A stretch of 64,000 bases of DNA from a virus (Duplodnaviria > Caudoviricetes), in the IMG/VR virus record IMGVR_UViG_3300044972_000310, positions 2,138 through 66,137 of that record; one strand, written 5' to 3'. Positions 35,880-64,000 of this stretch are shown in pieces; position 1 is the first letter of the stretch; every line of letters starts with the position of its first letter. The position numbers were made by a program, and so were the translations under genes. Below the pieces are notes generated by a model. That model saw only the letters and a program-made list of their open reading frames with translations, was not told where the DNA came from and made no database searches.

Positions 35880-37853
35880 AATCTTGCTTAAATTAAGGAG
35901 AAAATTATGAGCAAAGTCATCGGTATCGATTTAGGTACAACAAATTCATGTGTAGCTATTATTGAAAATGGCGTCGCAAAAGTTATTGAGAATTCAGAAG
36001 GCGCACGTACTACACCTAGTATTGTTGCATACGCTAATGATGAAATTCTAGTAGGCGCAAGTGCAAAGCGTCAAGCAGTAACAAACCCCAAGAACACAAT
36101 CTATGCTAGCAAGCGACTAATTGGACGTAAGTTTGATGAAGCGGCTGTGCAAAAAGACATTGATCTAATGCCTTACACCATCATCAAGGCAGATAACGGT
36201 GATGCTTGGGTACAGGTAAATGAGGACAAACTAGCACCTCCACAAATTTCAGCTGAAGTACTTCGCAAGATGAAAAAGACTGCTGAGGACTATTTAGGTG
36301 CAGAGGTTACACAGGCAGTTATTACAGTACCAGCTTACTTTAATGACAGCCAACGTCAAGCCACTAAGGATGCAGGTAAGATTGCAGGTCTTGAAGTGCT
36401 ACGTATTATTAACGAGCCTACTGCGGCTGCACTGGCCTACGGTGTTGATAAGGCTGACAAGAAAGACAGCAAAGTTGCAGTATACGACTTGGGTGGTGGA
36501 ACTTTTGATATCTCTATTATTGAGATTGCTAATGTCGATGGCGACAAACAGATTGAAGTGTTAAGTACGAACGGTGATACATTCTTAGGTGGTGAAGACT
36601 TTGACCAACGCATCATGGACTTCTTGGTTGATGAGTTTAAGAAAGAAAATGCAATTGATCTTAAGAAAGACATGCTGGCTCTACAACGCCTAAAAGAGGC
36701 TGCTGAAAAAGCCAAGATTGAATTGTCCAGCAGTGCCAGTACCAGCGTTAACTTGCCCTATATTACAGCAGACGCTAATGGCCCTAAGCATATGAACGTT
36801 ACTATTAGCCGTAGTAAGCTAGAAAGCCTTGTTGAAGAATTGATTCAACGTAGTATTGAGCCATGCCGTATTGCTATTAAAGATGCAGGTGTGGATGTTA
36901 GCGAAATTGACGAGGTTATCCTTGTTGGTGGTATGACACGCATGCCTAAGGTACAAGAAGCAGTTGAGAAGCTGTTCGGTAAGGCTCCACGTAAGGATGT
37001 TAACCCAGACGAAGCAGTTGCAGCGGGTGCGGCTGTACAAGGTGCTGTGCTAGCAGGTGACCGTAATGACGTATTGTTACTTGACGTTACTCCATTGAGC
37101 TTGGGTATCGAGACCATGGGCGGCATTATGGCCAAGTTGATCAACAAGAATACAACTATCCCAACTAAGGCTAGTCAAACATTCTCAACAGCAGAAGACA
37201 ACCAACCAGCAGTTACTATCAAAGCGTTCCAGGGTGAGCGTGACCTAGTACAACATAACAAGCTATTAGGCGAGTTTAACTTAGAAGGTATCCAGCCACA
37301 ACGTCGTGGTCAGCCACAGATCGAAGTTACATTGGATATCGATGCCAACGGTATCATGCACGTAAGTGCTAAAGATAAAACCACTGGTAAAGAAAACAAG
37401 ATTACTATCAAGTCAGACTCGGGTCTAACTAAAGAAGAAATCGAACGTATGGTACAAGAAGCAGAAGTTAACGCAGAGAGTGATAAGAAGACTCGTGAGT
37501 TGATCGAAGCACGTAACCAAGCAGAAGCACAGATCCATAGCATTAAGAAAGATATGGAAGAAGTAGATGCAGAGTTATCGGCCGAAGTTAAAGACAAAGT
37601 TAACGAAGCTATCACTTCAGTAGATGCAGCAATTATCACAGAAGATAAAGATGCCATTACACAAAAACTTAGCGACTTGTTTACTGCGGCTCAACCAGTG
37701 ATGGAAGCTAAACAAAAGAAAGAAGAAGCTAAGAAGAATGAAACTCCGGTAGACGCAGAGTTTACTGAAGTTAACTAACACAGACACACATAATAAATAC
37801 GTGTAGGGCGCTCGGGTGAGGCCCTACTATAATCTTGCTTAAATTAAGGAGAA
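35880..37853 (+). repeat. 23-nt identical leader upstream of dnaK (35880-35902) and hsp20 (37831-37853)
   Basis: AATCTTGCTTAAATTAAGGAGAA occurs twice. Confidence 0.9.
35907..37778 (+). CDS. dnaK: Hsp70 chaperone DnaK
   Basis: [40 protein letters not shown] end. Confidence 0.98.
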
Positions 37854-48241: not shown

Positions 48242-50305
48242 ATGATGAAGAAAATACTATTATCCCCTTGGACAGCACTGGCTACACTAGCCCTGGTGTT
48301 ATTAGTCCGTCTTGTAGATCCTGCGTTTGTAGAACGAGTAAGACTTACTTATTTTGATCAACTAATCACAAGCCAGCAGGCCAAAGATGTTCCTGTTTAC
48401 ACGGTCAACATTGACGAAGCAACATTAGACAAGTTAGGACAGTTTCCGTTCCCTAGAGACATGTATGCTGATATCATCAAAGACTTATACAAGCGTGACG
48501 CTGGACTGGTTGTATTCAATGTGCTTATGCCAGAGAAGGATCGTTTTGGTAAAGATGCGGTGTTAGGTGAAACTCTTAAAAAGTATCCTGTAGTGTTGCC
48601 TGCAATAGGCAGTGAGAAACAAAAGAATACTAATCATGGAACTCCTGCACAGGTAGTAGGTGCTGATCCTGCTGGAATGGTAGTTGAGTATCCGGGATTG
48701 ATCAATAACGTTGAGCCACAAGAAAGCCTTGCCGCTGGTGTTGGCATTGTCAATACATTTCCAGAGATAGATGGTGTTGTTCGTCGTATGCCAATGGTCA
48801 TACTAAGTCAAGAACAACTACATCCTGCACTAGCTCTAGAGACTTTACGTGTCGCGGCCAAGGATCCCAAGTTCCAAGTTAAAATAGGAGACATGGGCGT
48901 GGAGGCGGTGCGTGTTCCTAAGTTTGGTAAAGTACCAACGGACAACGAAGGTCGTGTTTGGATCGATTGGTCGGCCACTCCGAGAGAATACAGCTACATG
49001 AAGTTGCCAGAATCATTCGACGGTGGCATTGTTATTGTTGGACTAAGTGCTGCGGGACTGGCTAATCCAGTTAGTACTGCTAAAGGTGAAGTATGGCCAC
49101 AATATCTACAAGGTGCGGTTATTGGCACTATGATAACACAGAGTAATATACAGCGTCCAGGTTGGGCTGATCAAGCTGAAATCATTGCCTTGCTGGCCGC
49201 AGGCTTGTTGATGCTATTTTTATCAAGGTGGACCTATGCTTTTATTCCTGTTGTTGTCTTTCTCGGTGGCAGTCACTTTGCTATATCTTATCTATATGAA
49301 AACTCCAGAATCCTATTGGACGCCACTTGGTTTGTTGTTGGCTGTAGCTTGGTATACATTCACGCTTATAGTGTCAAATTTCTAAGCGAATACTTACAGA
49401 AGTCACAGATTAAGAAACAGTTCGGATCATATGTAAACCCTATTATTGTAGAACGACTACAAAAGGATCCTAGCTTTATTAAACTGGGCGGTGAGAAGAA
49501 AGAACTTACTGTCATGATGAGTGACATGCGTAACTTTACTGGTTTGGGAGAAACATATGGAGATGATGTTGTGGCATTTACGCATACAATGAATCGTTAC
49601 ATGACTGCCATTGCAGAACCTATACTACGCAACAATGGATGTTTGATCAAGTTCATTGGTGATGCGTCATTACACGTTCACGGTGCTCCTATTCAAGAGG
49701 CGCAAGATCCTGATCACATACTAGCAGGTGTACGTACAGGATTAGAAATGTTACACGCTGTTGAACTGTTTAACATTGAACTAGAGAAAGAGGGCAAGCC
49801 AAAAGTAGGATGCGGAATAGGTATCAACACAGGTCCTACCTTGATTGGTAACATCGGAAGTAAGGATCGATTTGCCTATGACGTATTAGGTGATTCAGTT
49901 AGTCTAACAGCTCGTCTAGAAGGACAGACAAAGAACTATGGTGTGCTGATTATCATTAGTGAAGCTACACAGAGTAGAGTAGGAAATGCTTACTTTACAT
50001 TGCCTTTAGATTGTATTGCGGTCAAGGGTAAGAACATAGGTGTCAATATCTTTACTGTGTTCTACAATCCAGATGAGAATGTAGCAGCAGAATGGCATAG
50101 TGCTAGAGAGCATCATGAACTAATGCTCGAATACTATCGTGAACAAAATTGGGACAAGGCTATTGAACTTTGTCAAGAACTCGTTGGTGAGTTCTATGGT
50201 AATATGGATCACTACTATGAGATATGGATTGAACGTATTGCCGAAATGCGTAGTAGAAATTTAGCCGCAGACTGGGATGGTACTTACAGAGCTACAAGCA
50301 AGTAA
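48242..50305 (+). CDS. CHASE2-domain class III adenylate/guanylate cyclase
   Basis: VNIDE..L...GQFPFPR, DGVVRR (CHASE2), three TMs, SDMRNFT, KFIGDA, GIGINTG, YDVLGDSV..ARLE. Confidence 0.92.
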   Translation: MMKKILLSPWTALATLALVLLVRLVDPAFVERVRLTYFDQLITSQQAKDVPVYTVNIDEATLDKLGQFPFPRDMYADIIKDLYKRDAGLVVFNVLMPEKDRFGKDAVLGETLKKYPVVLPAIGSEKQKNTNHGTPAQVVGADPAGMVVEYPGLINNVEPQESLAAGVGIVNTFPEIDGVVRRMPMVILSQEQLHPALALETLRVAAKDPKFQVKIGDMGVEAVRVPKFGKVPTDNEGRVWIDWSATPREYSYMKLPESFDGGIVIVGLSAAGLANPVSTAKGEVWPQYLQGAVIGTMITQSNIQRPGWADQAEIIALLAAGLLMLFLSRWTYAFIPVVVFLGGSHFAISYLYENSRILLDATWFVVGCSLVYIHAYSVKFLSEYLQKSQIKKQFGSYVNPIIVERLQKDPSFIKLGGEKKELTVMMSDMRNFTGLGETYGDDVVAFTHTMNRYMTAIAEPILRNNGCLIKFIGDASLHVHGAPIQEAQDPDHILAGVRTGLEMLHAVELFNIELEKEGKPKVGCGIGINTGPTLIGNIGSKDRFAYDVLGDSVSLTARLEGQTKNYGVLIIISEATQSRVGNAYFTLPLDCIAVKGKNIGVNIFTVFYNPDENVAAEWHSAREHHELMLEYYREQNWDKAIELCQELVGEFYGNMDHYYEIWIERIAEMRSRNLAADWDGTYRATSK

Positions 50306-51132: not shown

Positions 51133-51166
51133 GTAATCGCTCCTACAAATATATTTACCAAAATGC

Positions 51167-51195
51167 TTGCGTATAAATACTAGTGACTGTATAAT
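51167..51195 (+). promoter_or_regulatory. sigma70 promoter of the tmRNA gene
   Basis: TTGCGT-17 nt-TATAAT. Confidence 0.7.
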
Positions 51196-51201
51196 AACAG
51201 T

Positions 51202-51583
51202 TATTGTTGTAATCCCTTCAAAGTGAAGGCATTCTGGACGCGGGTTCGACTCCCGCCAGGTCCACCAAAAGGATATTTATGAAGTACACCGCATTGTGCC
51301 CAAGTTGTTTTATTAGATTTAGTTGGGTAATGAGGAAAGGCTTAACAAAACATAAGTGTTTTTCTGATGGGCCTGCCATGGTTTCGACAGGGTGAGATAA
51401 TAGAGACGGCAACACGGTAGGCGATGACCGTAAATCAAGCAAATAAAGTAAATGCAACAGCAAATACATTCGAGTATTTCCAAGTTGACTTCGACGTTAC
51501 AGCAATGAACGACGAGCAATTTGCAATCGCAGCCTAAGAAACTGCAACTCCGGGGTAGGACTTACCTTGTAAAATAAACAACC
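51202..51583 (+). ncRNA. ssrA: Circularly permuted (two-piece) tmRNA
   Basis: The 3' half (T-arm GCGGG-TTCGACT-CCCGC, CAGGTCC-A-CCA ending 51267) precedes the 5' half (GGGCCTG at 51369); acceptor stem has G3.U70; tag frame 51454-51537 ends NDEQFAIAA*. Outer boundaries approximate. Confidence 0.9.
51279..51395 (+). CDS. 38-aa Cys/His ORF in the tmRNA intervening segment
   Basis: AAGGA RBS just after the CCA; MKYTALCPSCFIRFSWVMRKGLTKHKCFSDGPAMVSTG. Confidence 0.4.
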   Translation: MKYTALCPSCFIRFSWVMRKGLTKHKCFSDGPAMVSTG

Positions 51584-51609
51584 ATAGGACCTTCGGGTCC
51601 TATCTTTTT
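51584..51609 (+). terminator. tmRNA terminator
   Basis: ATAGGACC-TTCG-GGTCCTAT-CTTTTT. Confidence 0.85.
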
Positions 51610-51635
51610 GGCTATATTTCCAATATTTCGCATCG

Positions 51636-51730: not shown

Positions 51731-52630
51731 ATGACAACTACAATTACAATTAAAGACAAAGCAGTAAACACAACTTACCAAAATGTCACAGGCTTAACAG
51801 GCGGAACTGGAACAGGCGCTACTTTTGATGTTACTAAAACAGACGGAGTATACTCTGTAGTTCTTGACAGCGTAGCCGCTAGTGCTGGCTCTGGCTATGT
51901 TGCAGGTGATACAATCACTCTTGCTGGTACAGCATTAGGTGGCACTGTAGCCAACAACCTAATTGTTACTGTAGCCACAGTTGGTACATCTGGCAAAGTT
52001 GCTACCTTTGGTGTAGTAGGTACTGGTCGTGCAGGAGATGGCACTGTTGACATTACCGTTGACGTTACAGGTACTACTGGCGTTGACACTTACGCCATGG
52101 GAGGTAAGAGCACAGAGTTCACAGTTACTAAAACTGCTGACAATGTAAAGTTAGCCAGCACACTAGTTAGTAACATGGAATTTAATCTTGCCAATCACGA
52201 GCGTGTTGTGTTCACAGACAAGGCCGTTGCCTATGATGCCACAGGTCGTGCAGGGGACGTATATGCATTGTTAGCGGCTGCACTTGGTACAGCAGATGTT
52301 ACTAAGGCTTATACAGGTGTTGGAATTCGACTTGCTGATTCAGGTTGGACTAACAAGGAATTAGCCACAGCATTGTTAGCCACTGATGTTTACAAAACAG
52401 ATGCAGGTGGTGTTAGCAATGAAACATTCATCAAGCACGTTTACAAAAATGTGTTTGGTACTGATGCAACATTAACACAGGTTACCGATTACACAGCATG
52501 GATGACTAACAGCAAGTTGTCACAGGCTGATGTATTGGTTGCCGCTAGCGAATTAGCCGCGTTTGAAACAACTATTGGTTTAGTGGGTTTAGCAACAACT
52601 GGTATTGAATATACTCCAGTCGTTGGATAA
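51731..52630 (+). CDS. Thr/Gly-rich protein with DUF4214/S-layer-like C-terminus
   Basis: ERVVFTDK..A.D, Y.L..AALG, SNETFI.HVYKNV.G, VGLA..GIEY. Confidence 0.7.
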   Translation: MTTTITIKDKAVNTTYQNVTGLTGGTGTGATFDVTKTDGVYSVVLDSVAASAGSGYVAGDTITLAGTALGGTVANNLIVTVATVGTSGKVATFGVVGTGRAGDGTVDITVDVTGTTGVDTYAMGGKSTEFTVTKTADNVKLASTLVSNMEFNLANHERVVFTDKAVAYDATGRAGDVYALLAAALGTADVTKAYTGVGIRLADSGWTNKELATALLATDVYKTDAGGVSNETFIKHVYKNVFGTDATLTQVTDYTAWMTNSKLSQADVLVAASELAAFETTIGLVGLATTGIEYTPVVG

Positions 52631-52644
52631 TTAATTTACGTCAC

Positions 52645-52674
52645 AAAAAAGGGCTCCGAGAGCCCTTTTCTTTT
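52645..52674. terminator. Bidirectional intrinsic terminator
   Basis: AAAAAAGGGCTC-CGA-GAGCCCTTTT. Confidence 0.8.
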
Positions 52675-55600
52675 ATGCCTGCGCTTCGCCCCAACGTAGA
52701 ATAACGTTAGCAGGAGTTGCTGCCCCAGCAACCTTATACACATTAATAGCTAGTACATCGGGACCATTTGGAAATGTGCCTCGACCACCGATAGCTGTAC
52801 TTGTTAGTTCTTTTAGTGTTTCTAATGATAGTGAATCAGTGCCGCCAGGATTAGATACAAAGGAGAACACTTGCTCTCCGGGCAATGCATACTGCGCACC
52901 AAACTGGAACGTTAGTGTAGCAGATGCTGATATTGCTGAATTTGAAGCCTGTGTAAATGATACACGATATACTGTAGTAGCGCCAAATGTTCGAGTAGTA
53001 ATAGCATTAACACTAGTACCAGCTGGAAACTGTGTTTGACTACTAGCTACTCGAGTTCCAATAATAGCTCCTGATGCTAGCCAAGTAGAACCTGTAAAGA
53101 ACAAATAGCTCAATGATGTGTACGTTGATCCACTACCTGCAGCAGTAGTAAGTACTGATTGATCATTACTGACACCGCTTGTACTAGTAGAATTTGCAGC
53201 GGCAGACATTACAATTCTAGTATATGGAACGCTAGATAGTGTTAAGTATGATGGAGTAATACTGAGAATAGTTTGACCACTAGTTAAGAATGTTGCTAAA
53301 CTCAGTACGTCACCTACTGCAATATTAGTTCTATCAGTGGCATCATTTCTAATTAAGAAGTCTGTCCTAGCAGTACTTAATGCTGATCCATATCTAGCAG
53401 TGGCTGCTGATGTTACTGTAACTGTCACGTTATTTCCAGTTCCTGCTACACTAGTAGCAGTACCAAAATTACTCATAATTACTCTTGCGTAAACAACCCC
53501 AGCAATAGTAGTAAAGTTACTGGTAAAGCTAGATATTGTTTGACCGCTAATTAAGAACGTTGTAGCAGACAGCACGTCCGACGTTGCCGCAGAAGTTGCC
53601 CCGTATTGAGTTTGTGTAATTAAGAAGTCTGTTCTAGCAGTGCTTACAGCAGTATTGTACGTAGCAGCTACTGAGCTAGCAAATGATATGTTGTTAACAG
53701 CAGTATTAGAATTACTAGTAAAATTTGCTGTTCCTGTCATAACTATTCTAGCATACGTAGTTGCGCCTATTGTGATAAAATTTTGTGTAATACTAGATAC
53801 TCGTTGACCGCTGGTAACAAAAGTAGTAACACTAATTACATCGTTTACTGCAAGAGGTGTTGTAAATGCTGCAAGAGTTGCCTGCGGAATTAAAAAGTCA
53901 GTTCTCGCAGTGCTGAATGCAAATTGATAAGTAGCATTTTGTGCGCTCGACAGCGCTGGAGCATTGGCAAGTCGACTAACTGCGCTAAATGACACGGCAG
54001 TAAGTGTTGTTGTTGCCGGCGCAAAACTTTTTGCAAGCAATGTAGTAGTAAATGAACCTTGCACAGTGGCAGTTGACGTGCTGACATTGCCTCCCCAAGT
54101 TACAGAACCACCAGATGCAACCTGTGCAAAGCTAGGCTGTCCGCCTGCTGCTGATGAATTTAAACTGTTCCACGAGATTTTAGTCGGATCAGTTGGATAA
54201 TTAATTGGGTTTAACACACCTTCAACAACGATCGCACCGTTATTATTTGGTGTTGCACCGGCCCATGTTAGATTAACACCAAACGTTCCGCTAGCACCTG
54301 TGCCACTTGTAAACGTTGGTGCTGTTGAGCTGAATGTTCCTGTACTAGTTGCTTGGTACCAATTTTTAATTCCGTTTGATACATTGCTATAATATAGCCC
54401 TGAAGTGGCTGTACCGCCGCTCGACCAAGTATTACCAACAAATGGATCTGCAGAATCAACTGGGTCACTAGTCACCGCAATTGAGCTCAATAATAATTGC
54501 GCACGATTTAATAGTTCGCGCTCGCCAAGATCTCCTGTTTGGGCATTACTTACGCTAGGAGCCAAACGAATCAAGAACGCAGTATTTTTATCCACACTGG
54601 CCGAAATACCAGTGGCTGCATAGTTAAAGATGTATCCACGATCTGAATCAAACTGTCCGTCAATCATAAATGCACTACCCCAATGGCTGATAATCGGAGT
54701 AATTGTATTTGATATTAAAACAACACCTGATCCAGCTGAATGGCTGGCTGCAACCCCTCCGGAGAATGTCCTTTGAGCACCTGCCACAAATTGTGTTAAA
54801 TTAGCTCCACGAGTACAACCCGTCAGCGCAGACCCAGTATTACCAGTGTATCGAATCATTTCAGCGTCAACTATAACTGTGCCAGCTGTTGGAAAATAAT
54901 ATGAATCCTGTAATGGTATTGTGGTCTGTGAGCTAGTCATTGAAGACACTAAAACGTCTTTTGCACCCTCGTTGACTACTTCGTAACGAACAGGTTGATT
55001 ACCAGTACGCATATACGCTTCTGTGTTTACATTACTGTTACGGAAACGGTGTGCAAACACATAGTTACCATCTGCGCCACGTAGCATAAAATCAATAAAG
55101 CCAGCACCGTACCAAGTATGCTGGATACCAATCATCTGCATTTTACCAATGTCAATATTATATCCACTAGGACCAGATCCGTTGCACGGATCTAAATTCC
55201 AATCTGCTTGCGGAACAATTAGGTCAACAGTCTTACAAATTTTAACGTTAGATACATCTGCTACACCACGGAAATCAGGAGCAACAGTTAAGCTAGTGTC
55301 ACTGATAATCTGTGTAATAATATGGCTCATTCCTCTAATAACAACTCTATCTCCAGCTGTTAATTGTTGGCTAAATCGAGTATTAGTTCCAGTAACTAGA
55401 TTAGAGTTTGCGGCAACGGATATAACTCCTGCAACCTGAAATGTACTTGACCTACGTACAACAGCTAATGTACGTCCATCATATTGATAGAACATACCGT
55501 TTTGATCATCAAAAATACCTGCACGTACAGTAGAGCCGTGCCATTGTCTCACTGTCATTATACACGGGCTATTTAATGTAGGGGTTGTACTCCCTAGTGT

Positions 55601-58600
55601 TTGGTAAGCAATAACTGAAAATTGACGTTCCGTAATAACATCACTAACAGTATATACTCCATTGTATCCAAATGTAGTAACACCGCTAATAGTAACCTGT
55701 GCTCCAACTTGACATCCATGATCAGTATCATCTGTATTAATTGTAATCACACTGCCGATTGTTGTTCCGGTGGAAGTAATAGTTTGAATATCATAACTAG
55801 GTGCAAATAATGCTCCAGTATTATATGTTACTCCTTTACCTGATTGATAACGAATATATTTCTTACTCATACGGATTGCAGTAGCACCGTGTGCTGATCC
55901 GCCAGTACCTAATTGTACGCCACCGTCAAACGGTCTGTGTACAAAGTAGCTGTCTGGACGAGCATACACGTTACCAATTAATGTATTCTGTATAGCACCA
56001 GTTGCTCGAGCAGTATAGCGCAGAGATGTAGTAGTAGGAACTTGCTCAACAAAGTATGCGCCAGCTGCAAATTGTGCATTTGTGCCGCTACTAGTAATCT
56101 GAACAGTAATAGTACTTCCCGGAACAAATCCGTGTGCAGAAGTGAAGTTAACTTCAACAGTTGAGATAGCACCGTATGTAATGTCAGTATTGCCGCTGGC
56201 AATTTCAGAAGTGGTGATTGCATTAAGTGTAACAGCACTAATAAAGTTTTTAGTAGGAGCACTGATAGGAGTACCTACTGTAGATACAGTTTGTATAGCA
56301 CCGCCAGCTGATACTGATAAAATGTTTATACTTGCTTGTTCACTTACTGAGCTAACTGTAAATCGACCGTTGGTTCCGGACCCACCAATAGTAATAATAT
56401 CACTGAGAGAATAAGCAGATCCCTGTGAGCTAATGTCAAATGACAACACACGCCCGTCAGTGACTGTAAGGACTGTAAGAACTGCATTGTTTCCGCCGCC
56501 GGTAACACTAACTGTATTGCCAGCACTATACCCGCCGCCTGCTGTAGCTATTCCAGCAGCTATAATTGTGCCGGGAACTATATTAGCAGTTCCAGTACCG
56601 CTGCCAACTCCAGTAACGGTAAATTTAAGTCCGGCGGGTGGTTGAGCAGTAATAGTAGTTGATGTACGTAATTGAGAATTGTTAACCGTATACGTTCCCA
56701 GGCCGCCGGCCCCCGAAACAAACCCGGTAATATATGTTCCCGGAGTAATACTACCCCCAGTAATATATGTACCATTTGCTAGGCTACCCGAAGAAACTGC
56801 TGTTATATCAAGAATAGTTCCGGCGCTGCCTGAACCGTTACTGATAGTACCGGTAAACTGGCCTAGAGCAAGGCCGCCAATTGCTACCCAATCTGTTGTG
56901 CCGTTAGTTACGATTTGATAAGAACGCCCTATTATAAAATTACCTGCTGTAGTAGTGTTAGCAGTAGCGGTTCCGGTACCACTGCCGACTCCGGTAGCAG
57001 TAAATGTTGTTCCAACAGTATTGTTTGGCGACCCGATTAGGGTAAAGTCAGTAGTACCTATTGAGACAATATTATAAGATTGATTAATAATAAAATTTCC
57101 AGCAACTGTAGGAGTTTCCGGCAACGCAACACTTATACCAACCGTTAGGCCAATGCCTGAACCAGTTAATGCAGTAGTATTAGCTAGACCGTTAGTGTAT
57201 CCAGATCCACCGTTGGTAACTGCTAATGCGCCATTTGGCACTCCGATAGTATCGGCAACAATGTCAACAGTTAATCCGGTGCCGGTGCCGCCTGTTGTTG
57301 CTATATTATATCCAGTTGTATATCCAGTCCCACTTGATGTTAATATACTTGTACCTATTACTTTACCTACAACAATTGGTATGGTAATAGTATTACCTAC
57401 AACATAACCAGATCCTGCACTGTTAATTGCAACAGCAGTTACAACCCCGCCTGACACCGTAGTATCAACTGTAAGGCCAGTACCGGCAGGTGCAGTGGTC
57501 GCAACATCAGTAGATGCATTATATCCTTTCCCTCCAACTAGTGTAGTATTATCTAAACTTGCTACTGTATTTTTTACACTAGCTGCTGTAACTGTAATAG
57601 TTGCAGTATTTGCAGGTGCTGTTCCCCCAAGATTTGTACCTGCAATTGTTATAGTATCAGTAGCAGTATATCCAGTTCCTGGTGTTGTGACTGTGGTTAG
57701 ATAGGTGCTTCCAGAACGTGACACTATAAATTCACCGTTAATTCCCGTTCCTGACGTTGACGTTTGTGACAACCCTGAATATGATTGATTAGTGCCCAGA
57801 ATGGCGCTAGTTAATGCTCCTCCCAAACTTACAGTATTGCCAGTTACATCAGTAACATTAACGGCATATCCGTTGCCGCGATCAAACACTAATCCTGAAC
57901 TAATACCGGTAGTATCGTTAACTATGATGACAGTATCTCCAATGGCAGCATTTGTAGTTAAGGTTGTTGATGCTGCTGTCCCGCCTGACCCGGTAACCGC
58001 AGTAACTTGGGTACCGGTAGTAACACCAGTACCAGCTAGCGGAGATCCAATTGGCGGTGCTGTACCGGTGAAGCCAATAATATCAACGCCAGCAGGAGTT
58101 ATCAAACTAGTAGTAATATTGCCGCTAGATCCGGCAGAGAAAATGTTAAATGCTGGAGTTCCTACTGAAGAGCCTGTATAAAATGCACCTTTTCGTAGTT
58201 GAGTATAAGTAGAACTTAACTGCTGGCCGTTTGTTGTTCCGACTTTTGATTTAGCATAATATTTAAATGTTACAAGATCCGTAACTTCGGCAATTAAAAA
58301 ACTACCTTCTGCACGGCTAAATCCAGTAACTGAGTTTGCCAGTGCTTTAATTGTAATAGGATCACTTACTACTAACCCATGAGAGTTTAATGTGGTAACA
58401 GTTATTAAACTTGAGCCAGACGCTCCGCTGCCACTACTTGCATCTGTTACCACATTAACTACTGCAATGTCAGATCCTGGGATTTCGTACACTGACGGAT
58501 AATTTCTCATCAATCCAATTGCTTGCCATTTAGTTGGCTGTAGTCCGTACTCAAAGTCAGCATCAAGCATACTTTGTGGAATACCAACTTTTTGACGCTC

Positions 58601-59437
58601 CATAGCATCAGTAGCAATACTGTTAAATCTAACGATTTGTTCTTTACCTTCTACAAATAACTGAATAGCATCAGTTACCATCATAGCACTAGTATCAATA
58701 TCAAATATCAATGTGGTAATTTTTTCATTGCCGTAGAGTGCGCCTGCAAAATCACTATCAAAATTTTCACTATAGGTTAAATCTGCACCCAATGTTGCGT
58801 CTGCAAAGTTATAAAGAATAACGTTACGAGTTGCATTAGTTATTAACAGAATATCTTTAAGTTTAAAGAATCCGGGGAATTTAATGTATCCCCTATTAGA
58901 AACTATAGCTGGTAAACTAACTAAGCCGTTAGTTATAACATTAATAATTGTATTGGTCAAATCTGACAATTTTGTAGCACCGGCTGGCTCAGCAGTATAT
59001 GCATTGTTAATAACTTGAGTTACTATGCTTTGTCTAAATCCAAATGCAACATTTGTTAGAATAAAATTCTGTATTAGATCTCCAATAAATGTATGTACAT
59101 ATACTTCAGGCTGACGTGATCCATCAATTTGAGGAATACCATTTTCAAAATATTTGCTAGCATTATTAACAGTTTGTCTGTTGCCACCTTTACGAAGATC
59201 GCTAATATATCCTTCTAAAATATAACTGACATCTCGTCGACATTTTTCAGCGTTATAAGAGTAGTAAATAAAAGGATAGATGTTGTTGTCAATATTGTAT
59301 TGAATATATGCAATTGCTTCTTCTTGAATAAACTTTTTGTTTAATTCTAAAAGTGCATGAGTGTTGGGATATAAATTTACGTCCGGAACTACTACACCCG
59401 GTACAAACTTATAAGTTGAAATCTGCTTCTTTGCCAT
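52673..59437 (-). CDS. 2254-aa virion structural/fibre-like protein
   Basis: KCRRD..Y module, DADFEYGLQPTKW, RYQSGKG, Gly/Thr repeats, W.E.QA end. Confidence 0.75.
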   Translation of the reverse strand: MAKKQISTYKFVPGVVVPDVNLYPNTHALLELNKKFIQEEAIAYIQYNIDNNIYPFIYYSYNAEKCRRDVSYILEGYISDLRKGGNRQTVNNASKYFENGIPQIDGSRQPEVYVHTFIGDLIQNFILTNVAFGFRQSIVTQVINNAYTAEPAGATKLSDLTNTIINVITNGLVSLPAIVSNRGYIKFPGFFKLKDILLITNATRNVILYNFADATLGADLTYSENFDSDFAGALYGNEKITTLIFDIDTSAMMVTDAIQLFVEGKEQIVRFNSIATDAMERQKVGIPQSMLDADFEYGLQPTKWQAIGLMRNYPSVYEIPGSDIAVVNVVTDASSGSGASGSSLITVTTLNSHGLVVSDPITIKALANSVTGFSRAEGSFLIAEVTDLVTFKYYAKSKVGTTNGQQLSSTYTQLRKGAFYTGSSVGTPAFNIFSAGSSGNITTSLITPAGVDIIGFTGTAPPIGSPLAGTGVTTGTQVTAVTGSGGTAASTTLTTNAAIGDTVIIVNDTTGISSGLVFDRGNGYAVNVTDVTGNTVSLGGALTSAILGTNQSYSGLSQTSTSGTGINGEFIVSRSGSTYLTTVTTPGTGYTATDTITIAGTNLGGTAPANTATITVTAASVKNTVASLDNTTLVGGKGYNASTDVATTAPAGTGLTVDTTVSGGVVTAVAINSAGSGYVVGNTITIPIVVGKVIGTSILTSSGTGYTTGYNIATTGGTGTGLTVDIVADTIGVPNGALAVTNGGSGYTNGLANTTALTGSGIGLTVGISVALPETPTVAGNFIINQSYNIVSIGTTDFTLIGSPNNTVGTTFTATGVGSGTGTATANTTTAGNFIIGRSYQIVTNGTTDWVAIGGLALGQFTGTISNGSGSAGTILDITAVSSGSLANGTYITGGSITPGTYITGFVSGAGGLGTYTVNNSQLRTSTTITAQPPAGLKFTVTGVGSGTGTANIVPGTIIAAGIATAGGGYSAGNTVSVTGGGNNAVLTVLTVTDGRVLSFDISSQGSAYSLSDIITIGGSGTNGRFTVSSVSEQASINILSVSAGGAIQTVSTVGTPISAPTKNFISAVTLNAITTSEIASGNTDITYGAISTVEVNFTSAHGFVPGSTITVQITSSGTNAQFAAGAYFVEQVPTTTSLRYTARATGAIQNTLIGNVYARPDSYFVHRPFDGGVQLGTGGSAHGATAIRMSKKYIRYQSGKGVTYNTGALFAPSYDIQTITSTGTTIGSVITINTDDTDHGCQVGAQVTISGVTTFGYNGVYTVSDVITERQFSVIAYQTLGSTTPTLNSPCIMTVRQWHGSTVRAGIFDDQNGMFYQYDGRTLAVVRRSSTFQVAGVISVAANSNLVTGTNTRFSQQLTAGDRVVIRGMSHIITQIISDTSLTVAPDFRGVADVSNVKICKTVDLIVPQADWNLDPCNGSGPSGYNIDIGKMQMIGIQHTWYGAGFIDFMLRGADGNYVFAHRFRNSNVNTEAYMRTGNQPVRYEVVNEGAKDVLVSSMTSSQTTIPLQDSYYFPTAGTVIVDAEMIRYTGNTGSALTGCTRGANLTQFVAGAQRTFSGGVAASHSAGSGVVLISNTITPIISHWGSAFMIDGQFDSDRGYIFNYAATGISASVDKNTAFLIRLAPSVSNAQTGDLGERELLNRAQLLLSSIAVTSDPVDSADPFVGNTWSSGGTATSGLYYSNVSNGIKNWYQATSTGTFSSTAPTFTSGTGASGTFGVNLTWAGATPNNNGAIVVEGVLNPINYPTDPTKISWNSLNSSAAGGQPSFAQVASGGSVTWGGNVSTSTATVQGSFTTTLLAKSFAPATTTLTAVSFSAVSRLANAPALSSAQNATYQFAFSTARTDFLIPQATLAAFTTPLAVNDVISVTTFVTSGQRVSSITQNFITIGATTYARIVMTGTANFTSNSNTAVNNISFASSVAATYNTAVSTARTDFLITQTQYGATSAATSDVLSATTFLISGQTISSFTSNFTTIAGVVYARVIMSNFGTATSVAGTGNNVTVTVTSAATARYGSALSTARTDFLIRNDATDRTNIAVGDVLSLATFLTSGQTILSITPSYLTLSSVPYTRIVMSAAANSTSTSGVSNDQSVLTTAAGSGSTYTSLSYLFFTGSTWLASGAIIGTRVASSQTQFPAGTSVNAITTRTFGATTVYRVSFTQASNSAISASATLTFQFGAQYALPGEQVFSFVSNPGGTDSLSLETLKELTSTAIGGRGTFPNGPDVLAINVYKVAGAATPANVILRWGEAQA

Positions 59438-59452
59438 TTATTATTTCCTTGG

Positions 59453-60655
59453 TTAGCTTAATGCTATAGACATTGCAATTGCTCTTGTGTCGACGTATCT
59501 TTTATTTGATGCATGAGCTGGTTGACTTGGGGTTGTTGGAACTGAAATGTTTCCAGCAACTGATAAATTTGTTAAGGTTCCAACTGTAGTTATGCTACTA
59601 GAGCCTGTCCAGGTACTTAATGCGGTGTTTTCAACATTACCTAATCCAACCATAGATTTACTAACACCTCCAACAGTGCCTGTAAAAGTAGGGTCATTGA
59701 TATCTGCTTTAACACTTAATCCGTCATCAACATACGTTTTAACTGCTGATTCCGTAGGAACGTTTAAATTGCTATTAGCTGATAATGCAGAATCGTTTGT
59801 AAATGCTGTTACTTGTACACCTGTACTGAATTCAAGTGACGCAAGATTAGTAATTATACCAGTATCATCAGCATCAAGCTGACCAGTCATAACTAATATG
59901 TCTGTTAACGGGTCGTAGTTTAAAGGGGTAACTCCGCCAAAGATCCCATTATTATTAAATTGAATATTGCCAACGCCGCCACCAGGTGGGTTAGTAGTTC
60001 CGCCGCCACCTCCTCCGGACTGTGCTACCCAAGATAATGCGCCGCCGCCGTTTGTTGATAAAACAAATCCTGCTGTTCCGTCTGCAGCTGGCAATTGATA
60101 TACAGTGTTTACTGTTAAGTTTGCAGGAGATTTAAATGAAATATGATTAGTATTATCTGTATCATTGAACCTAAGCTCGCTAGCTGATCTTACTGTAAGA
60201 GTGGAGCTTGATGAAAATGTGCCTGTAACTGAACTGTTTCCGGTAATAGTTGCTCCGCCTGCTGAAACAGTTAGAGCATTTTCAGCAGTTAGTGTACTGG
60301 TAAAATTACCTGTGCTGCCTACATGCAAAGCACCACCAATACCAGCACCGCCTAACACAATTAATGCACCATTTCCGCTAGTTGAGCTACTAGTTGAGTT
60401 TTGTATGTTCAACGCACCAGTAATTATGCCGCCATTGAATGTACTAGATAACGATAACGGACGCCATATATTGCTAGATCCGTCATAGTATAAAACCTGA
60501 CCATTTGTTGCATTAAAAACATCTACATCAGATAATGTGTCAAGAGTACTTCCTGGGGGTTGTAAATTCCATGCAACGCCGTCCCATACCCAGGTATTTG
60601 AACCTACAGTATGAGTACTGTTAGTAACAGGGGAATTTGGAAAATTAATAGCCAT
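59453..60655 (-). CDS. Tail fibre-like protein
   Basis: MAINFPNSP..W.WDG.AW, LDTLSDV, GALIV.GG.GIGG, VPTESAVKTYVD, NKRYVD. Confidence 0.75.
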   Translation of the reverse strand: MAINFPNSPVTNSTHTVGSNTWVWDGVAWNLQPPGSTLDTLSDVDVFNATNGQVLYYDGSSNIWRPLSLSSTFNGGIITGALNIQNSTSSSTSGNGALIVLGGAGIGGALHVGSTGNFTSTLTAENALTVSAGGATITGNSSVTGTFSSSSTLTVRSASELRFNDTDNTNHISFKSPANLTVNTVYQLPAADGTAGFVLSTNGGGALSWVAQSGGGGGGTTNPPGGGVGNIQFNNNGIFGGVTPLNYDPLTDILVMTGQLDADDTGIITNLASLEFSTGVQVTAFTNDSALSANSNLNVPTESAVKTYVDDGLSVKADINDPTFTGTVGGVSKSMVGLGNVENTALSTWTGSSSITTVGTLTNLSVAGNISVPTTPSQPAHASNKRYVDTRAIAMSIALS

Positions 60656-60684
60656 TTTTAATCTCTTTTTGTATTTATTACATT

Positions 60685-62202
60685 TTAACTAGCTGTAATA
60701 GTAAGGGGTTGACTGCTAGTAAACGGCCATCTTAAATATCTATTAGGGCTTCCCTGTAGGCTAGTTAAATCACTATACCCACCGCCACTATCAACGATTC
60801 TATTAGGAGTAGATCCGGTAGTAGATAACCAACGTATACAATCATCTGCGGTATAATGTCTCCTACTTCCAACAAGACATGCTAGCACTCCCGTAACTTG
60901 GGGAGCAGCCATGCTAGTTCCTTGTATTTTTTTTATATAAAAATTAACATTGTCAGGATGAGCAACTGCTCCGCTGCCTAAAGTAGCTGTTAACGGCATG
61001 GCACTTTGTACAGCTTCACCAGGTGCATACACAGTGATTCCGGGACCGCATGTACTAAATGCAGACTTGTTTTCTGTAAGAGCAGCTCGAATAGCACCTA
61101 CTGAAATTACACTAGTAGGGCCATTAGGAGTTGAGCCTCTATGGTAATATCTAATATCTGCCCCAGATGTTGTATAATAATTGTTGTAATCTAACCCACC
61201 TAGTACATCTTGTTTGTGTGTATCATTGCCGGCAGCTGCAACTAGGATCATACCTGCATCTATACACGCAGTAATATCTGCATCAACACTGCTAACTCGA
61301 ATGGGATGAGTATACACGCCTGCATTAAGATTATAAACACTTTCAATCATACCGTAAGCACTTTGTGCAGTAACAGCAGTCCACGGAGTTCCTCTATAAT
61401 TACCACCTACTATATTTTGATAAGTTTGATAATAACCCCAACTCATGTTTACTACAGTAGGATTAGTATTAGTTTTTAAATTGTGCCAAAGTCTCATCAT
61501 GTTAAAACTTGCACTGATTCCAAATGCGTCAATGTCAAAAATTTTAATAGCATATAAGTTTGCAGCTCTTGCCCAGCCAAATCTACGCCCTGCGGCTGTC
61601 CCTGCACAATGAGTACCGTGCCCGTAGGTATCAGTATAGTGAGCTGGTCCTTGTGAATATGTCCCGGATAGTCCTGATGCTGCGGGCCAATTAATTTGCT
61701 GTAGTCTTAACGTAGTGCCGTCTTGAGCTAGCCATTCAGGATGTCCGACCTCAATACCCGAATCTTGAATAACAACGTCAACATTCTCTCCTATAGCAGT
61801 ATAGGCATGTTGATAGTTGAGATTTAACGTTGAAAACGGATTAACAGTATTTGTACATGAAGGTATTGACCATGCATAATGACTGTTATTTTGTGCAGTA
61901 GATCTACTGTAATTCCTAAAAGCATCTAATGTATTTCTTCGAAGGAAAATACCGTTTTCTTCTTTAGAACCATATCGAACATCGATAATCCTTGGATCTT
62001 GTTTTAACATTTCAGCTTCTGCTCGTGTTAATACAACATCAAAGTTGTAAAGACTATCTTGTTTTTCGTTCCACATCTCAACAGTTCTCTGTGGAATATG
62101 AGGTGTTGTTCCTCCTGATGAAGTTATTTCTTCCATTAAGGCGTCAACATCAACACCTTTGTGAACTGTGACTACGCAACGATTTTGATCTTCTGTACTC
62201 AT
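60685..62202 (-). CDS. Subtilisin-like S8 serine protease
   Basis: VVIQDSG, GHGTHCAG, AAGN, GTSMAAP; start reassigned to ATG 62202. Confidence 0.9.
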   Translation of the reverse strand: MSTEDQNRCVVTVHKGVDVDALMEEITSSGGTTPHIPQRTVEMWNEKQDSLYNFDVVLTRAEAEMLKQDPRIIDVRYGSKEENGIFLRRNTLDAFRNYSRSTAQNNSHYAWSIPSCTNTVNPFSTLNLNYQHAYTAIGENVDVVIQDSGIEVGHPEWLAQDGTTLRLQQINWPAASGLSGTYSQGPAHYTDTYGHGTHCAGTAAGRRFGWARAANLYAIKIFDIDAFGISASFNMMRLWHNLKTNTNPTVVNMSWGYYQTYQNIVGGNYRGTPWTAVTAQSAYGMIESVYNLNAGVYTHPIRVSSVDADITACIDAGMILVAAAGNDTHKQDVLGGLDYNNYYTTSGADIRYYHRGSTPNGPTSVISVGAIRAALTENKSAFSTCGPGITVYAPGEAVQSAMPLTATLGSGAVAHPDNVNFYIKKIQGTSMAAPQVTGVLACLVGSRRHYTADDCIRWLSTTGSTPNRIVDSGGGYSDLTSLQGSPNRYLRWPFTSSQPLTITAS

Positions 62203-63437
62203 TATGAATATAAAGGTATGTAGCGAACATTTGACCCAACTGTAAGCTGTAACCATCCTGTAGGTGAAGCTGTATTTGACGGTGTGCCGGTAGTTGAAGC
62301 TATTGTCATAGTACCAGTTATATCTAAATCACCGTTTAAAATCAACGTTCCTAAGTTATTACCTGTGGTAAAAATAAAATCACCCGCACTAGTGTATGTA
62401 GGAGTACCTACCCCATTGCTAGTTAATGTTGATGCTATTACACTATCGAACACTACAGCGTCCGTAGTGTTCAAAGATTGATTAAATCCAGAAGCAACGG
62501 TAATAGTATCTGTTGCTGCATTTGTTGTTAAGGTAATGCCCGTTCCAGCAACTAGAGTTAATATATCTGTACTACTATCTGCAACAACGTTAGTTTGTCC
62601 TGCAACAGAAATTGTAGCAAAAGAATTTGGAATGCCGCTATTGGTGAAAGTTATTGTATCTGATCCAGGAACAGTTGTTATTGTAATACCTGTTCCGCCG
62701 ACAAATGTTAAGATGTCTGTTATAGAATCTGCAACAACGTCTGATTGGCCAGCTACTGAGATTGTAGAAAAAGAATTACTGCCACTAGTTATAGTACCTG
62801 GCCTCCAATTACTAGCTGCGCTGTTCCATACTAATGATTGGCCGTTAGTTGGAGCAGCTGTTGCAGTGTCAACATCTGAAAGATCGTTGATTGAAGTAGC
62901 TCCACCGATAGTTGTGCCACCTACAGTTGATCCAGCAGGAAGGTCGATAACACTACCTGTAGAACTGATAGTAGCACTGCCTAGATAAATGGTGCTACTT
63001 AGTCGTAAGTCTCTCCATCTTTTATTGTCATTTCCTAAATCAATTGCTCCGCTTAAATTAGGCAGTAGTGATGCATTAATTGCTGTTGTTCCTAAATTAG
63101 TAAGTGAAGTGTTTGCTCCATTAGTAGTGCCCGAGTCAAGGAGACCTGCAGGAACTATAGGTGTTACCCACTGATTACTATTAATATCTTGGTAGTAAAT
63201 GTAAAGACTACCGTTCGCTGAATTAAACCAGAGACTACCTTGGTTAGGAGTATCTGGCGGAGTATCCGCTACAGTCACGCTGGCATTTAGTAGTGTACCA
63301 CCTAAAATTGTACCGTCAAAAATTCGTAAAGATTTCGAAGTACTATCGTAGAAGATTTCCCCTCTGTTCCCGCTGAGTCTATCTAATTCTGCTTTTGGTT
63401 TTGGCAATAATCTTAGTGATCTTACTGGTAATGACAT
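62202..63437 (-). CDS. Tail fibre-like protein
   Basis: GEIFYD...LRIFDG, QGSLWFNS, DLG...RW, LSDVD, VAGQ..VVADS repeats. Confidence 0.75.
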   Translation of the reverse strand: MSLPVRSLRLLPKPKAELDRLSGNRGEIFYDSTSKSLRIFDGTILGGTLLNASVTVADTPPDTPNQGSLWFNSANGSLYIYYQDINSNQWVTPIVPAGLLDSGTTNGANTSLTNLGTTAINASLLPNLSGAIDLGNDNKRWRDLRLSSTIYLGSATISSTGSVIDLPAGSTVGGTTIGGATSINDLSDVDTATAAPTNGQSLVWNSAASNWRPGTITSGSNSFSTISVAGQSDVVADSITDILTFVGGTGITITTVPGSDTITFTNSGIPNSFATISVAGQTNVVADSSTDILTLVAGTGITLTTNAATDTITVASGFNQSLNTTDAVVFDSVIASTLTSNGVGTPTYTSAGDFIFTTGNNLGTLILNGDLDITGTMTIASTTGTPSNTASPTGWLQLTVGSNVRYIPLYS

Positions 63438-63519
63438 ATTATTATCTCGCTATCCTGTATTTAGCTTATTAGCGGGCAGTGTAATGGCGGTAATAAACCA
63501 AAGAGTCCAATCAAAAAGA

Positions 63520-63548
63520 ATGACCAAAATTGGCTAAGAGTGTATAAT
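63520..63548 (+). promoter_or_regulatory. sigma70-type promoter facing the non-coding region
   Basis: ATGACC-17 nt-TATAAT. Confidence 0.55.
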
Positions 63549-63554
63549 AGCTTA

Positions 63555-63980
63555 TTAAAGGCACACAGGCTCCAGGCAAATCAGCGTGACAAAAGGCGTA
63601 GCAGCGCCAGCTATATTCTGCCGGGCAAGGTTCTGATGTGTGACCCAATACCCCGCCGCTTCGCGCCGGCATCTTCTATTCACTACCCGAAAGGATGCTT
63701 AAATGTCTCGCCACTGTGAGAAACGTTTGAATAGTCGTAACAGTTGCAGATTTCCAATACGCTCATAAGAACAATGGCACCGAGGTTCTTTTAAAAATCG
63801 TAGAGAGTGGGGTAAGGTACAGAGCCCAGAAGCGTGGACAATCCAAATACTCTCTGCTAACGTGTGGCCTTGCGACTCAACAAACATGTAACGGCGCTCA
63901 TTATATGGGTGCCGTATGACCACATTGATCTAACAAAACTTAAAGAAAGAAAAATAATGCGATCGCAAGTGAGCATTGGT
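63555..63980 (+). ncRNA. Candidate large structured non-coding RNA (family not recognised)
   Basis: No + strand ORF in the track; dense nested helices and a loop-distal pairing; boundaries approximate. Confidence 0.55.
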
Positions 63981-64000
63981 CTTTAGACCTTTATTGATTT

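Follow-up and report, generated by a model that had tools for sequence, protein, structure and literature searches.

In passages of a recent preprint, GOLLD and ROOL are described as phage and prophage RNAs that lie "often near tRNA islands" and form RNA-only nanocages, and their function is given as unknown (bioRxiv 10.1101/2024.12.08.627333). Here we describe a locus that resembles them in kind, found in viral DNA of the IMG/VR record IMGVR_UViG_3300044972_000310. The window, i.e., the whole stretch of 64,000 nucleotides that was analyzed, comprises bases 2138-66137 of this 66,137-bp linear record (CheckV completeness estimate, 16%), and its position 64000 is the contig end, because the record ends at 66,137. 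We take ROOL and GOLLD to be the Rfam families RF03087 and RF01998, respectively; ROOL is about 580 nt long. The segment 63507-64000 quite probably constitutes a gene in itself, which encodes a stand-alone, structured non-coding RNA of about 440 nt; the family of this RNA is absent from Rfam 15. The family is apparently undescribed in the literature as well, a provisional statement, as a text search cannot find a sequence. In its genomic niche and its architecture it is like GOLLD and ROOL, and it is probably a new, unrelated example of their kind, while being a member of neither family. A first-pass annotation, which quoted the letters of 63520-64000 as they stand in the record, had proposed a large, pseudoknotted non-coding RNA of unrecognized family on the + strand, and the dense compensatory change found in homologues bears this out.

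Homologues were collected in several ways. An exact 30-mer of the region was found in two other viral contigs, in which blastn homology extends from 63507 to the end of the window with 88% and 82% identity; homology to relatives begins at about 63507 regardless of the upstream sequence. The 18-mer GGGGTAAGGTACAGAGCC of the most conserved stretch was present in 35 viral stretches, and a 21-nt pattern in 72 metagenome stretches and in one contig among 185,579 prokaryote species (one genome each), this being a 4.7-kb contig of a lake metagenome-assembled genome bin. A profile search with nhmmer yielded 110 loci with the element, corresponding to 93 distinct sequences. There were 69 full-length homologues, 60 of them below 97% identity, with a mean pairwise identity of 61% and a minimum of 44%. 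When 50,697 deposited phage records were searched by blastn in its distant mode, no similar sequence was retrieved, and the RNA was found in none of 57 loci related through the neighboring protein of 411 amino acids. Eight lake-water DNA runs from eight studies contained 93-95% of the sampled words, a count that omits six further runs, possibly the source. Overall, the alignments establish that the predicted cassette is kept as a movable unit in many contigs of uncultivated phages from aquatic environments, mostly lake water.

The fold was deduced from these homologues. In a three-way alignment, CUAUUCA/UGAAUAG was replaced by CUAAGAA/UUCUUAG, and AAGAAC/GUUCUU by ACUAGC/GCUAGU or UCUGAC/GUCAGA, i.e., by compensatory changes. 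RNAalifold on 24 sequences gave 58 pairs, of which 34 had changed on both sides. Alignment A3 was then made with L-INS-i and consisted of the window and 54 representatives (55 sequences); it excludes six of the 60 representatives, namely, those with a partial profile match (loci L141, L151, L108, L082, L073 and L078). Column pairs of the alignment were ranked by corrected mutual information, and a model of 69 pairs in 14 helices, pseudoknots included, was written from the covariation and not from any single sequence. On A3, 96.3% of the cells were in standard pairs, compared to 79.3% in 500 shuffles that ignore relatedness, none of which reached the observed value. In a second control, which does not ignore it, the 3' partners were slid by 1-3 columns, and 36.9-41.9% of the cells were then paired; 52 of the 69 model pairs showed change on both sides, compared to 21-26 when the partners were slid, and the covariation score was 0.550 for the model and 0.08-0.11 for the slid versions. 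Among the paired cells (n = 4235), G.U was found in 386 and A.C in 69, and therefore the + strand is the RNA strand, as the first-pass annotation had supposed from the many G.U pairs. The substitution pattern thus establishes a predicted RNA with at least 14 helices and at least three pseudoknots, maintained by compensatory change. Large size with a covarying multi-helix fold and pseudoknots, as in GOLLD and ROOL, is found here in the form of 69 pairs and 14 helices, three of which are pseudoknot helices.

Several helices had been drawn earlier from the letters of the window, and the alignment allows each of them to be judged. AGAAC/GTTCT (63767-72 with 63785-90) is our helix P10, in which all six pairs changed on both sides and every cell is paired; GTAGAGAGT/ACTCTCTGC (core 63803-09 with 63848-54) and ACGGCGCTCA/TGGGTGCCGT (63891-99 with 63907-15) likewise hold, with both-sided change in four of seven and five of nine pairs. 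The pairing of CTATTCA with TGAATAG is a true helix (seven of seven pairs both-sided, 99% paired), but it had been read as a pseudoknot formed by the loop of the hairpin GGCATCTT/AGGATGCT; it is an ordinary long-range helix instead, because that hairpin is unsupported (canonical pairs in 285 of 440 cells, with 42% or less in four of the eight pairs). The RNA is nonetheless pseudoknotted, since covariation supports other pseudoknots, namely PK1 and PK2 and, tentatively, PK3. The sole strongly varying pair of PK3 is A:U in 32, G:C in 19 and G:U in 4 sequences, and PK3 competes with an extension of P11. GGCGT/GCGCC was retained in the trimmed form GGCG/CGCC, which is present in 8 sequences, with GGTG/CACC in 3 and GGT/GCC in most. 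TGTGG/CCACA is plausible and weak, its duplex energy being better than that of 95% of shuffles in 9 of 55 sequences, whereas TGGA/TCCA had to be abandoned (106 of 198 cells canonical), its G residues pairing with 63754-55 in PK2. In place of AATGC/GCATT, folded tails again have a hairpin, although with other letters, and its alignment in A3 is poor; GGG/CCC, now P12, is invariant in 55 of 55 sequences and gives no covariation readout. A kink-turn in the P4 loop was also considered and was rejected, as U63631:A63643 covaries as a Watson-Crick pair.

The coordinates of all features are collected in Table 1. The 5'-terminal 28 nt of the transcript are variable, and the conserved fold starts at 63584. 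In this leader (63556-63583) and its homologues (A3 columns 1-39), one clade was seen to carry two to three copies of AGGCA/AGGCU, e.g., AAAGGCACACAGGCUCCAGGCA in the window. At the other end, the folded tails that were inspected typically had two 3' hairpins of variable sequence, and one subgroup was without them; a terminator scan of the window called none, the terminal stem having four pairs and the window ending inside the tail.

Table 1. Positions in the window of the predicted RNA gene, its helices and its other sequence elements, 5' to 3'.
Feature	Position	Strand	Evidence
Conserved cassette: promoter, RNA gene and 3' hairpins	63507..64000	+	blastn; L059, L060 and L146 share the block, upstream neighbors differ
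Sigma70-like promoter: -35 ATGACC, 17-nt spacer, -10 TATAAT	63520..63548	+	10/12 consensus positions; conserved in alignment A1
Inferred transcript, ~440 nt	63555..63995	+	Alignments A2 and A3; hidden Markov model match 63576-63987; ends inferred
PK1 5' strand GCGUG, partner 63662-63666 in P5 hairpin loop	63584..63588	+	5/5 pairs both-sided, 88% of cells paired
GGCG (63595-98) with CGCC (63605-08), H-type pseudoknot with P2	63595..63608	+	Modest support
P2: 63600-63604 with 63618-63622	63600..63622	+	5/5 pairs both-sided, 97.1% paired
P3: 63623-25 with 63651-53, encloses P4	63623..63653	+	3/3 pairs, 97.6% paired
P4 hairpin: 63629-32 with 63642-45, conserved loop CUGAUGUGU	Inside P3	+	Columns 92:109 U:A 50, A:U 4; A3 inspection
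P5 hairpin: 63655-58 with 63667-70; loop 63662-66 is PK1 3' strand	63655..63670	+	5/5 pairs both-sided, 92.3% paired
Central domain, closed by P6 (63676-82 with 63728-34)	63676..63734	+	P6: 7/7 pairs both-sided, 99% paired
P7: 63687-88 with 63693-94, GAAA loop	Central domain	+	Covariation model
P8: 63702-05 with 63724-27	Central domain	+	Covariation model
P9: 63706-09 with 63718-21	Central domain	+	RNAalifold and column-pair ranking
PK2 5' strand CC..ACGCU (63754-55, 63759-63), partner 63831-63837 in P11 domain	63754..63763	+	7/7 pairs both-sided; 93.6%, 97.8% paired
P10 hairpin: 63767-72 with 63785-90, conserved loop contains CACCGAG	63767..63790	+	6/6 pairs, 100% paired
PK3 (tentative): P10 loop 63775-78 with 63856-59		+	2/4 pairs both-sided, 95.9% paired
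Most conserved stretch: UUAAAAAUCGUAG, P11 5' strand, P12 hairpin GGGG-UAAGGUACAGA-GCCC	63791..63830	+	Invariant A3 columns (partly ascertained)
P11: 63803-09 with 63848-54, encloses P12 and PK2 3' strand (63831-37)	63803..63854	+	4/7 pairs both-sided
P12: 63810-13 with 63824-27	Inside P11	+	Invariant, hence no covariation readout
P13: 63863-67 with 63920-24, encloses twin segment A and P14	63863..63924	+	Weak
Twin segment A GACUCAACAAACA	63874..63886	+	Variable letters identical to those of segment B
P14 hairpin: 63891-99 with 63907-15		+	5/9 pairs both-sided
Twin segment B GAUCUAACAAAAC	63927..63939	+	Variable letters identical to those of segment A
P15 hairpin AAUGC...GCAUU	63956..63977	+	Folded tails have a hairpin here, with other letters; poor alignment in A3
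Terminal hairpin GGUC-UUUA-GACC, then U-rich tail	63978..64000	+	Likely terminator or 3' protective hairpin; contig ends here

The sigma70-like promoter site that had been noticed ahead of the RNA is present (Table 1), and transcription presumably starts near 63555. A -10 box of the form TATAAT (24 sequences) or TATACT (12 sequences) lies 16-61 nt upstream of an invariant AAGG in 36 of 55 homologues. Five homologues, including L099 and L105, are without such a box, and in L099 the RNA directly follows a gene for transfer-messenger RNA (tmRNA). The earlier statement that the region has no tracked + strand open reading frame (ORF) needs qualification, since short ORFs of 59 amino acids (63540-63719) and 40 amino acids (63864-63986) do exist, but no coding signature was seen in the homologues. 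Runs of insertion or deletion relative to the window were multiples of three in 68 of 869 cases, variability by frame was 0.221, 0.226 and 0.203, i.e., with no three-base period, and the longest stop-free frames of the homologues resembled those of shuffles. Judged by these comparisons, it is established that the predicted element is not coding. Four metatranscriptome runs, each of a different study, also yielded contigs with relatives of the RNA, namely, 14 records, 151-863 nt in length, which cover 63613-63977 at a likeness of at least 80%. None of these contigs matched 63200-63612 or 63978-64000, but contigs give neither ends nor strand, and they lend weak support to expression of the RNA.

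The cassette is a unit, and its surroundings differ among relatives. In L059 and L146, the gene ahead of it is homologous to the DUF4214 gene (51731-52630) of the window, and the tmRNA is about 1 kb upstream. In the window and in L161, the DUF4214 gene and the RNA are separated by an 11-kb minus-strand module, which L146 has behind the RNA instead and which L059 lacks. Of 89 distinct loci (588 kb in total), 30 contained a tRNA or tmRNA gene, and 103 of the 109 such genes were on the strand of the RNA. All sources of the RNA but one are viral or metagenome contigs, and placement in phages near tRNA islands, as in GOLLD and ROOL, is thus found here also. Five large carrier contigs, G001-G005 (L092, L061, L067, L079 and L093), are 149-300 kb long at an estimated completeness of 44-81%; each has one copy of the RNA and 11-39 tRNA matches in islands on one strand. 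These large carriers are jumbo phages of roughly 350 kb. Among 60 scanned loci, tRNAs with a CUA anticodon, which ARAGORN names tRNA-Pyl, were seen in eight (L060:3855-3928, L066:3364-3438, L116, L139, L154, L156, L162 and L166); they may act as amber suppressors, which hints that stop codons are recoded in some of these phages. Adjacent protein families each occur in 17 of 90 distinct loci at most, and Pfam gave no recurrent RNA-binding protein, nuclease, recombinase or reverse transcriptase next to the RNA in these loci. The first-pass annotation had advised a look at the downstream gene for a nuclease, reverse transcriptase or tRNA cluster; tRNAs do occur in the relatives, together with peroxide-detoxification genes, but nuclease and reverse transcriptase genes do not.

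It is to be noted that several results weigh against a stand-alone structured RNA gene of the GOLLD/ROOL kind. First of all, relative to dinucleotide shuffles, the z-score of the minimum free energy of 63560-64000 was 0.12 (+ strand) or 0.72 (- strand), so that at z = 0.12 the stability of the fold does not exceed that of shuffled sequence. The thermodynamic test is uninformative for this RNA, and the comparative evidence is decisive and overwhelmingly for structure. Second, within that evidence, the shuffle control takes no account of phylogeny, unlike the slid control. Third, most members were gathered through one conserved motif; the invariance of the core is thereby inflated, and divergent relatives may be hidden. 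The conservation of 63791-63830, in particular, is partly a matter of ascertainment, because this motif served to find members, and L094, which was retrieved through a different motif, has one base changed in the common one. Fourth, the association with tmRNA and tRNA genes is partial: among 62 loci with sufficient flanking sequence, a tmRNA immediately precedes the RNA in 4, a tmRNA is present within 3 kb in 5 of 31, and the tRNA island of the five large contigs, although on the same strand, is 2-45 kb from the RNA. Lastly, the evidence from RNA libraries consists of assembled contigs, and DNA can occur in such libraries.

A different view of the locus would be that of a long cis-acting 5' leader, i.e., a riboswitch or attenuator of the peroxide-stress genes ahpC, ahpD-like and rubrerythrin. 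The commonest annotated neighbors among the 90 loci are AhpC, CMD, an opposite-strand fatty-acid desaturase and an upstream CHASE2 cyclase, each in 15, and the AhpC-family genes and the CMD/AhpD-like genes are downstream on the same strand. L059 has this pair downstream, and in L161 a rubrerythrin gene starts about 110 nt after the RNA, followed by an Asp/Asn-hydroxylase-like gene and, 4 kb on, by tRNAs; the weak terminal hairpin and the lack of a called terminator would also suit read-through into such genes. A leader should be followed by a constant gene family, whereas here even the commonest, AhpC, is found in 15 of 90 loci and the downstream gene varies: three inserted unrelated ORFs precede the same gene pair in L060, the minus-strand module with the gene for a protein of 2254 amino acids follows the RNA in L146, and the opposite-strand desaturase gene abuts the RNA in 15 loci. 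The two 3'-end hairpins typical of the folded tails and the movement of the cassette as a unit are also contrary to a leader, which we consider improbable. As an observation in its own right, peroxide-defense genes lie just downstream in a fifth of the relatives (L059:2062-3077, - strand; L060:8477-9618, + strand; L161:9385-9834, + strand), and the AhpC, CMD/AhpD-like and rubrerythrin genes look like auxiliary metabolic genes of these phages.

A second alternative concerns a peculiar feature of the RNA, namely, two twin segments of 12-13 nt that are 72 alignment columns apart. Their variable letters match within a genome and differ between genomes, so that the covariation is parallel and not complementary: all 55 sequences have the same letter in both columns of the pair 430:502, and 54 of 55 do so in each of 431:503, 432:504 and 433:505, the variants being AACA, AGCA, AGCG, AGAU and GGAU. 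From this identity, one would think of a trans partner common to both segments or of two pockets that are equivalent. The RNA might accordingly be imagined as a guide or docking RNA, in which the twin segments pair with two copies of one target and direct a protein or RNA there; by conjecture, the target would be a tRNA anticodon loop (facing a codon-like ACA, GCA, GCG or GAU) or two DNA or RNA sites. The near-perfect identity of the column pairs, the several variants, and the failure to find a partner within the RNA, in which no recurrent 7-nt complement of the segments was seen, would agree with this. On the other hand, the RNA has no consistent neighbor among nucleases, recombinases or reverse transcriptases, complementarity to the adjacent tmRNA was like that of shuffled controls in 12 loci, and the 5' half of segment A itself closes a small covarying hairpin (YUGAG...CUCAR), which together make a guide or docking RNA in this strict sense a poor prospect. 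Reading the segments as a codon-like triplet (ACA, GCA, GCG or GAU) followed by a purine is a matter of conjecture. Two related ideas were rejected. A tmRNA-like tag frame starting from segment B was one, as indels are not in threes and the peptide is without the ...AA ending of the phage's own tmRNA tag; the other was a link of CAG/UAG and CAA/UAA in the two segments to amber-suppressor tRNAs, as L060 has UAA and yet carries a tRNA(CUA).

The possibility of a highly divergent member of a known family, i.e., of RNase P RNA, group I intron, GOLLD, ROOL, OLE or tmRNA, was addressed with the 4227 models of Rfam 15. RNase P RNA or GOLLD/ROOL would be in keeping with the size of the RNA, its pseudoknots and its position next to genes for tmRNA and tRNA. 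At the gathering score, the sole match in the window was the tmRNA, and in 63300-64000 at E<=10 there was a single 15-bit match to a small nucleolar RNA, on the opposite strand and at chance level. In 15 homologous loci at the gathering score, every match was to tmRNA or tRNA, and in 20 small loci at E<=5 there were 18 matches, 14 of them to tmRNA or tRNA and four weak and at chance level; none of these, in either set, was on the RNA. The covariance models of GOLLD, ROOL and RNase P were thus without a match in 63300-64000 and in both sets of loci, and so were those of group I and II introns in Rfam, the element being intergenic and having its own promoter. A tRNA-like domain with a tag frame, the hallmark of tmRNA, was not found, as ARAGORN detects the window's tmRNA at 51175-51628 alone; the RNA has no similarity to this tmRNA and is single-copy in the window. 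These results agree with the earlier reading that no RNase P, tRNA or group I/II signature is present. As judged by these models, the predicted RNA does not detectably belong to any curated family, be it GOLLD, ROOL, OLE, RNase P, group I/II introns, tmRNA or another, and a hidden kinship with one of them is very improbable. Short apparent resemblances to RNase P RNA (CUAGAUGAAU and AGCAAAC) are unsupported by any model and were discarded; the P4 core sequences of RNase P were not seen. Fremin et al. 2023 (PMC10690425) predicted 8495 structured RNAs of 29-151 nt from IMG/VR, and fragments of the new RNA could be among their supplementary candidates. Finally, the intergenic position at a contig end, the short ORFs and the twin segments as direct repeats might bring to mind a gene for a small protein or an element that acts as DNA (an origin of replication, a packaging site or an attachment site). 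This view is strongly disfavored, as the strand-specific asymmetry of 386 G.U to 69 A.C is unexpected of a DNA duplex element, the compensatory changes preserve pairing and not sequence, and the region has a conserved promoter and no coding signature.

Returning to the stand-alone RNA gene, the following course may be envisaged. The RNA would be transcribed from its own sigma70-type promoter or, in some relatives, by read-through from the adjacent tmRNA gene, and the transcript would end at the two 3' hairpins. The product would be a stable, compact, trans-acting RNA, in which the invariant unpaired elements, i.e., the P12 loop UAAGGUACAGA, the linker UUAAAAAUCG, CACUACC/GGAUGCC and the P4 loop, may constitute a binding or active site. 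Large RNAs with such dense conserved tertiary structure are rare, and those known are ribozymes, ribonucleoprotein scaffolds, or the unexplained GOLLD, ROOL and OLE. The likeliest role, a serious possibility that falls somewhat short of an even chance, is one tied to phage translation support, together with the tRNAs and tmRNA, through binding of a conserved partner from host or phage (e.g., the ribosome, tRNA or tmRNA) or through self-assembly of the GOLLD/ROOL type. A catalytic role is doubtful, and homo-oligomeric assembly, by analogy with GOLLD and ROOL, would be equally so; the invariant P12 loop does contain the self-complementary GUAC, and its sole variant, GUGC, can self-pair through G.U. 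More speculatively, the RNA may be a jumbo-phage RNA machine of a new functional class, ribozyme or self-assembling, that acts on the translation system, with the twin segments as programmable docking sites for two copies of a partner RNA; we regard this as unlikely but worth stating, and a specific tRNA read through the codon-like triplet would be a conjectural example of such a partner. If true, no large phage RNA before it would have had specificity elements that are guide-like and co-evolve. The invariant loops and the two segments that vary in the same way offer concrete starting points for solving the structure, for pull-downs and for mutagenesis.

The remainder of the window contributes several observations. 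By Pfam, it encodes a ribonucleotide reductase, Hsp70/DnaK, a CHASE2-cyclase, an S8 peptidase and an Mtd_N-bearing protein, and these predicted genes fit a large phage. The phage-encoded CHASE2-adenylate/guanylate cyclase (48242-50305, +) recurs upstream of the tmRNA/RNA region (15 of 90 loci), and the Hsp70/DnaK (35907-37778, +) is full-length. The window has a two-piece (permuted, beta-type) phage tmRNA at 51154-51628 (+) with the predicted tag ATANTFEYFQVDFDVTAMNDEQFAIAA; ARAGORN places it at 51175-51628 and the Rfam tmRNA models at 51154-51607. The tmRNAs of the relatives have other tags, and some are directly upstream of the new RNA. Two-piece tmRNAs are a feature of marine and aquatic phages according to passages of a published report (PMC9004378). 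The 11-kb minus-strand module (52673-63437, -) encodes a protein of 2254 amino acids, one of 400 amino acids, the S8 peptidase and a fiber-like protein of 411 amino acids, and is a movable or variable host-interaction module.

Comparison with known systems places the RNA as follows. In way of working, a variable triplet plus purine beside a small helix recalls, by conjecture, the specifier codon of a T-box leader, but the new RNA is no leader, has two identical sites, has no antiterminator or T-box sequence, and matches no Rfam model. With bacterial RNase P RNA it shares a length of about 400 nt and long-range pseudoknots, and RNase P RNA would make sense as a companion to the tRNA arrays and tmRNA precursors of phages; unlike it, the new RNA is matched by no Rfam RNase P model at E<=10. 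The two-piece tmRNA is found in the same genomes on the same strand, directly adjacent in some relatives, and is pseudoknot-rich and of similar size, but the new RNA has no tRNA-like domain, tmRNA model match, sequence similarity or conserved tag frame. GOLLD, as the preprint passages describe it, is likewise a phage-encoded ornate RNA of lake and marine metagenomes, near tRNA islands and of unknown function; the new RNA differs in having no match to its model, about half its size, no embedded tRNA, and other helices and conserved sequences. ROOL differs in that its covariance model does not match the new RNA, in its greater length as compared to about 440 nt, and in its occurrence in rumen or Firmicutes prophages as opposed to aquatic jumbo-phage contigs. 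By the same description, ROOL nonetheless resembles the new RNA in being large (hundreds of nucleotides), multi-pseudoknotted, encoded by phages or prophages together with tRNA genes, and without an associated protein or known function. A third unrelated ornate RNA in tRNA/tmRNA-rich giant aquatic phages would suggest a recurrent phage strategy, and the new RNA, being smaller (~440 nt) and diverse in sequence (93 distinct sequences), offers an independent system, next to GOLLD and ROOL, for asking what ornate RNAs do.

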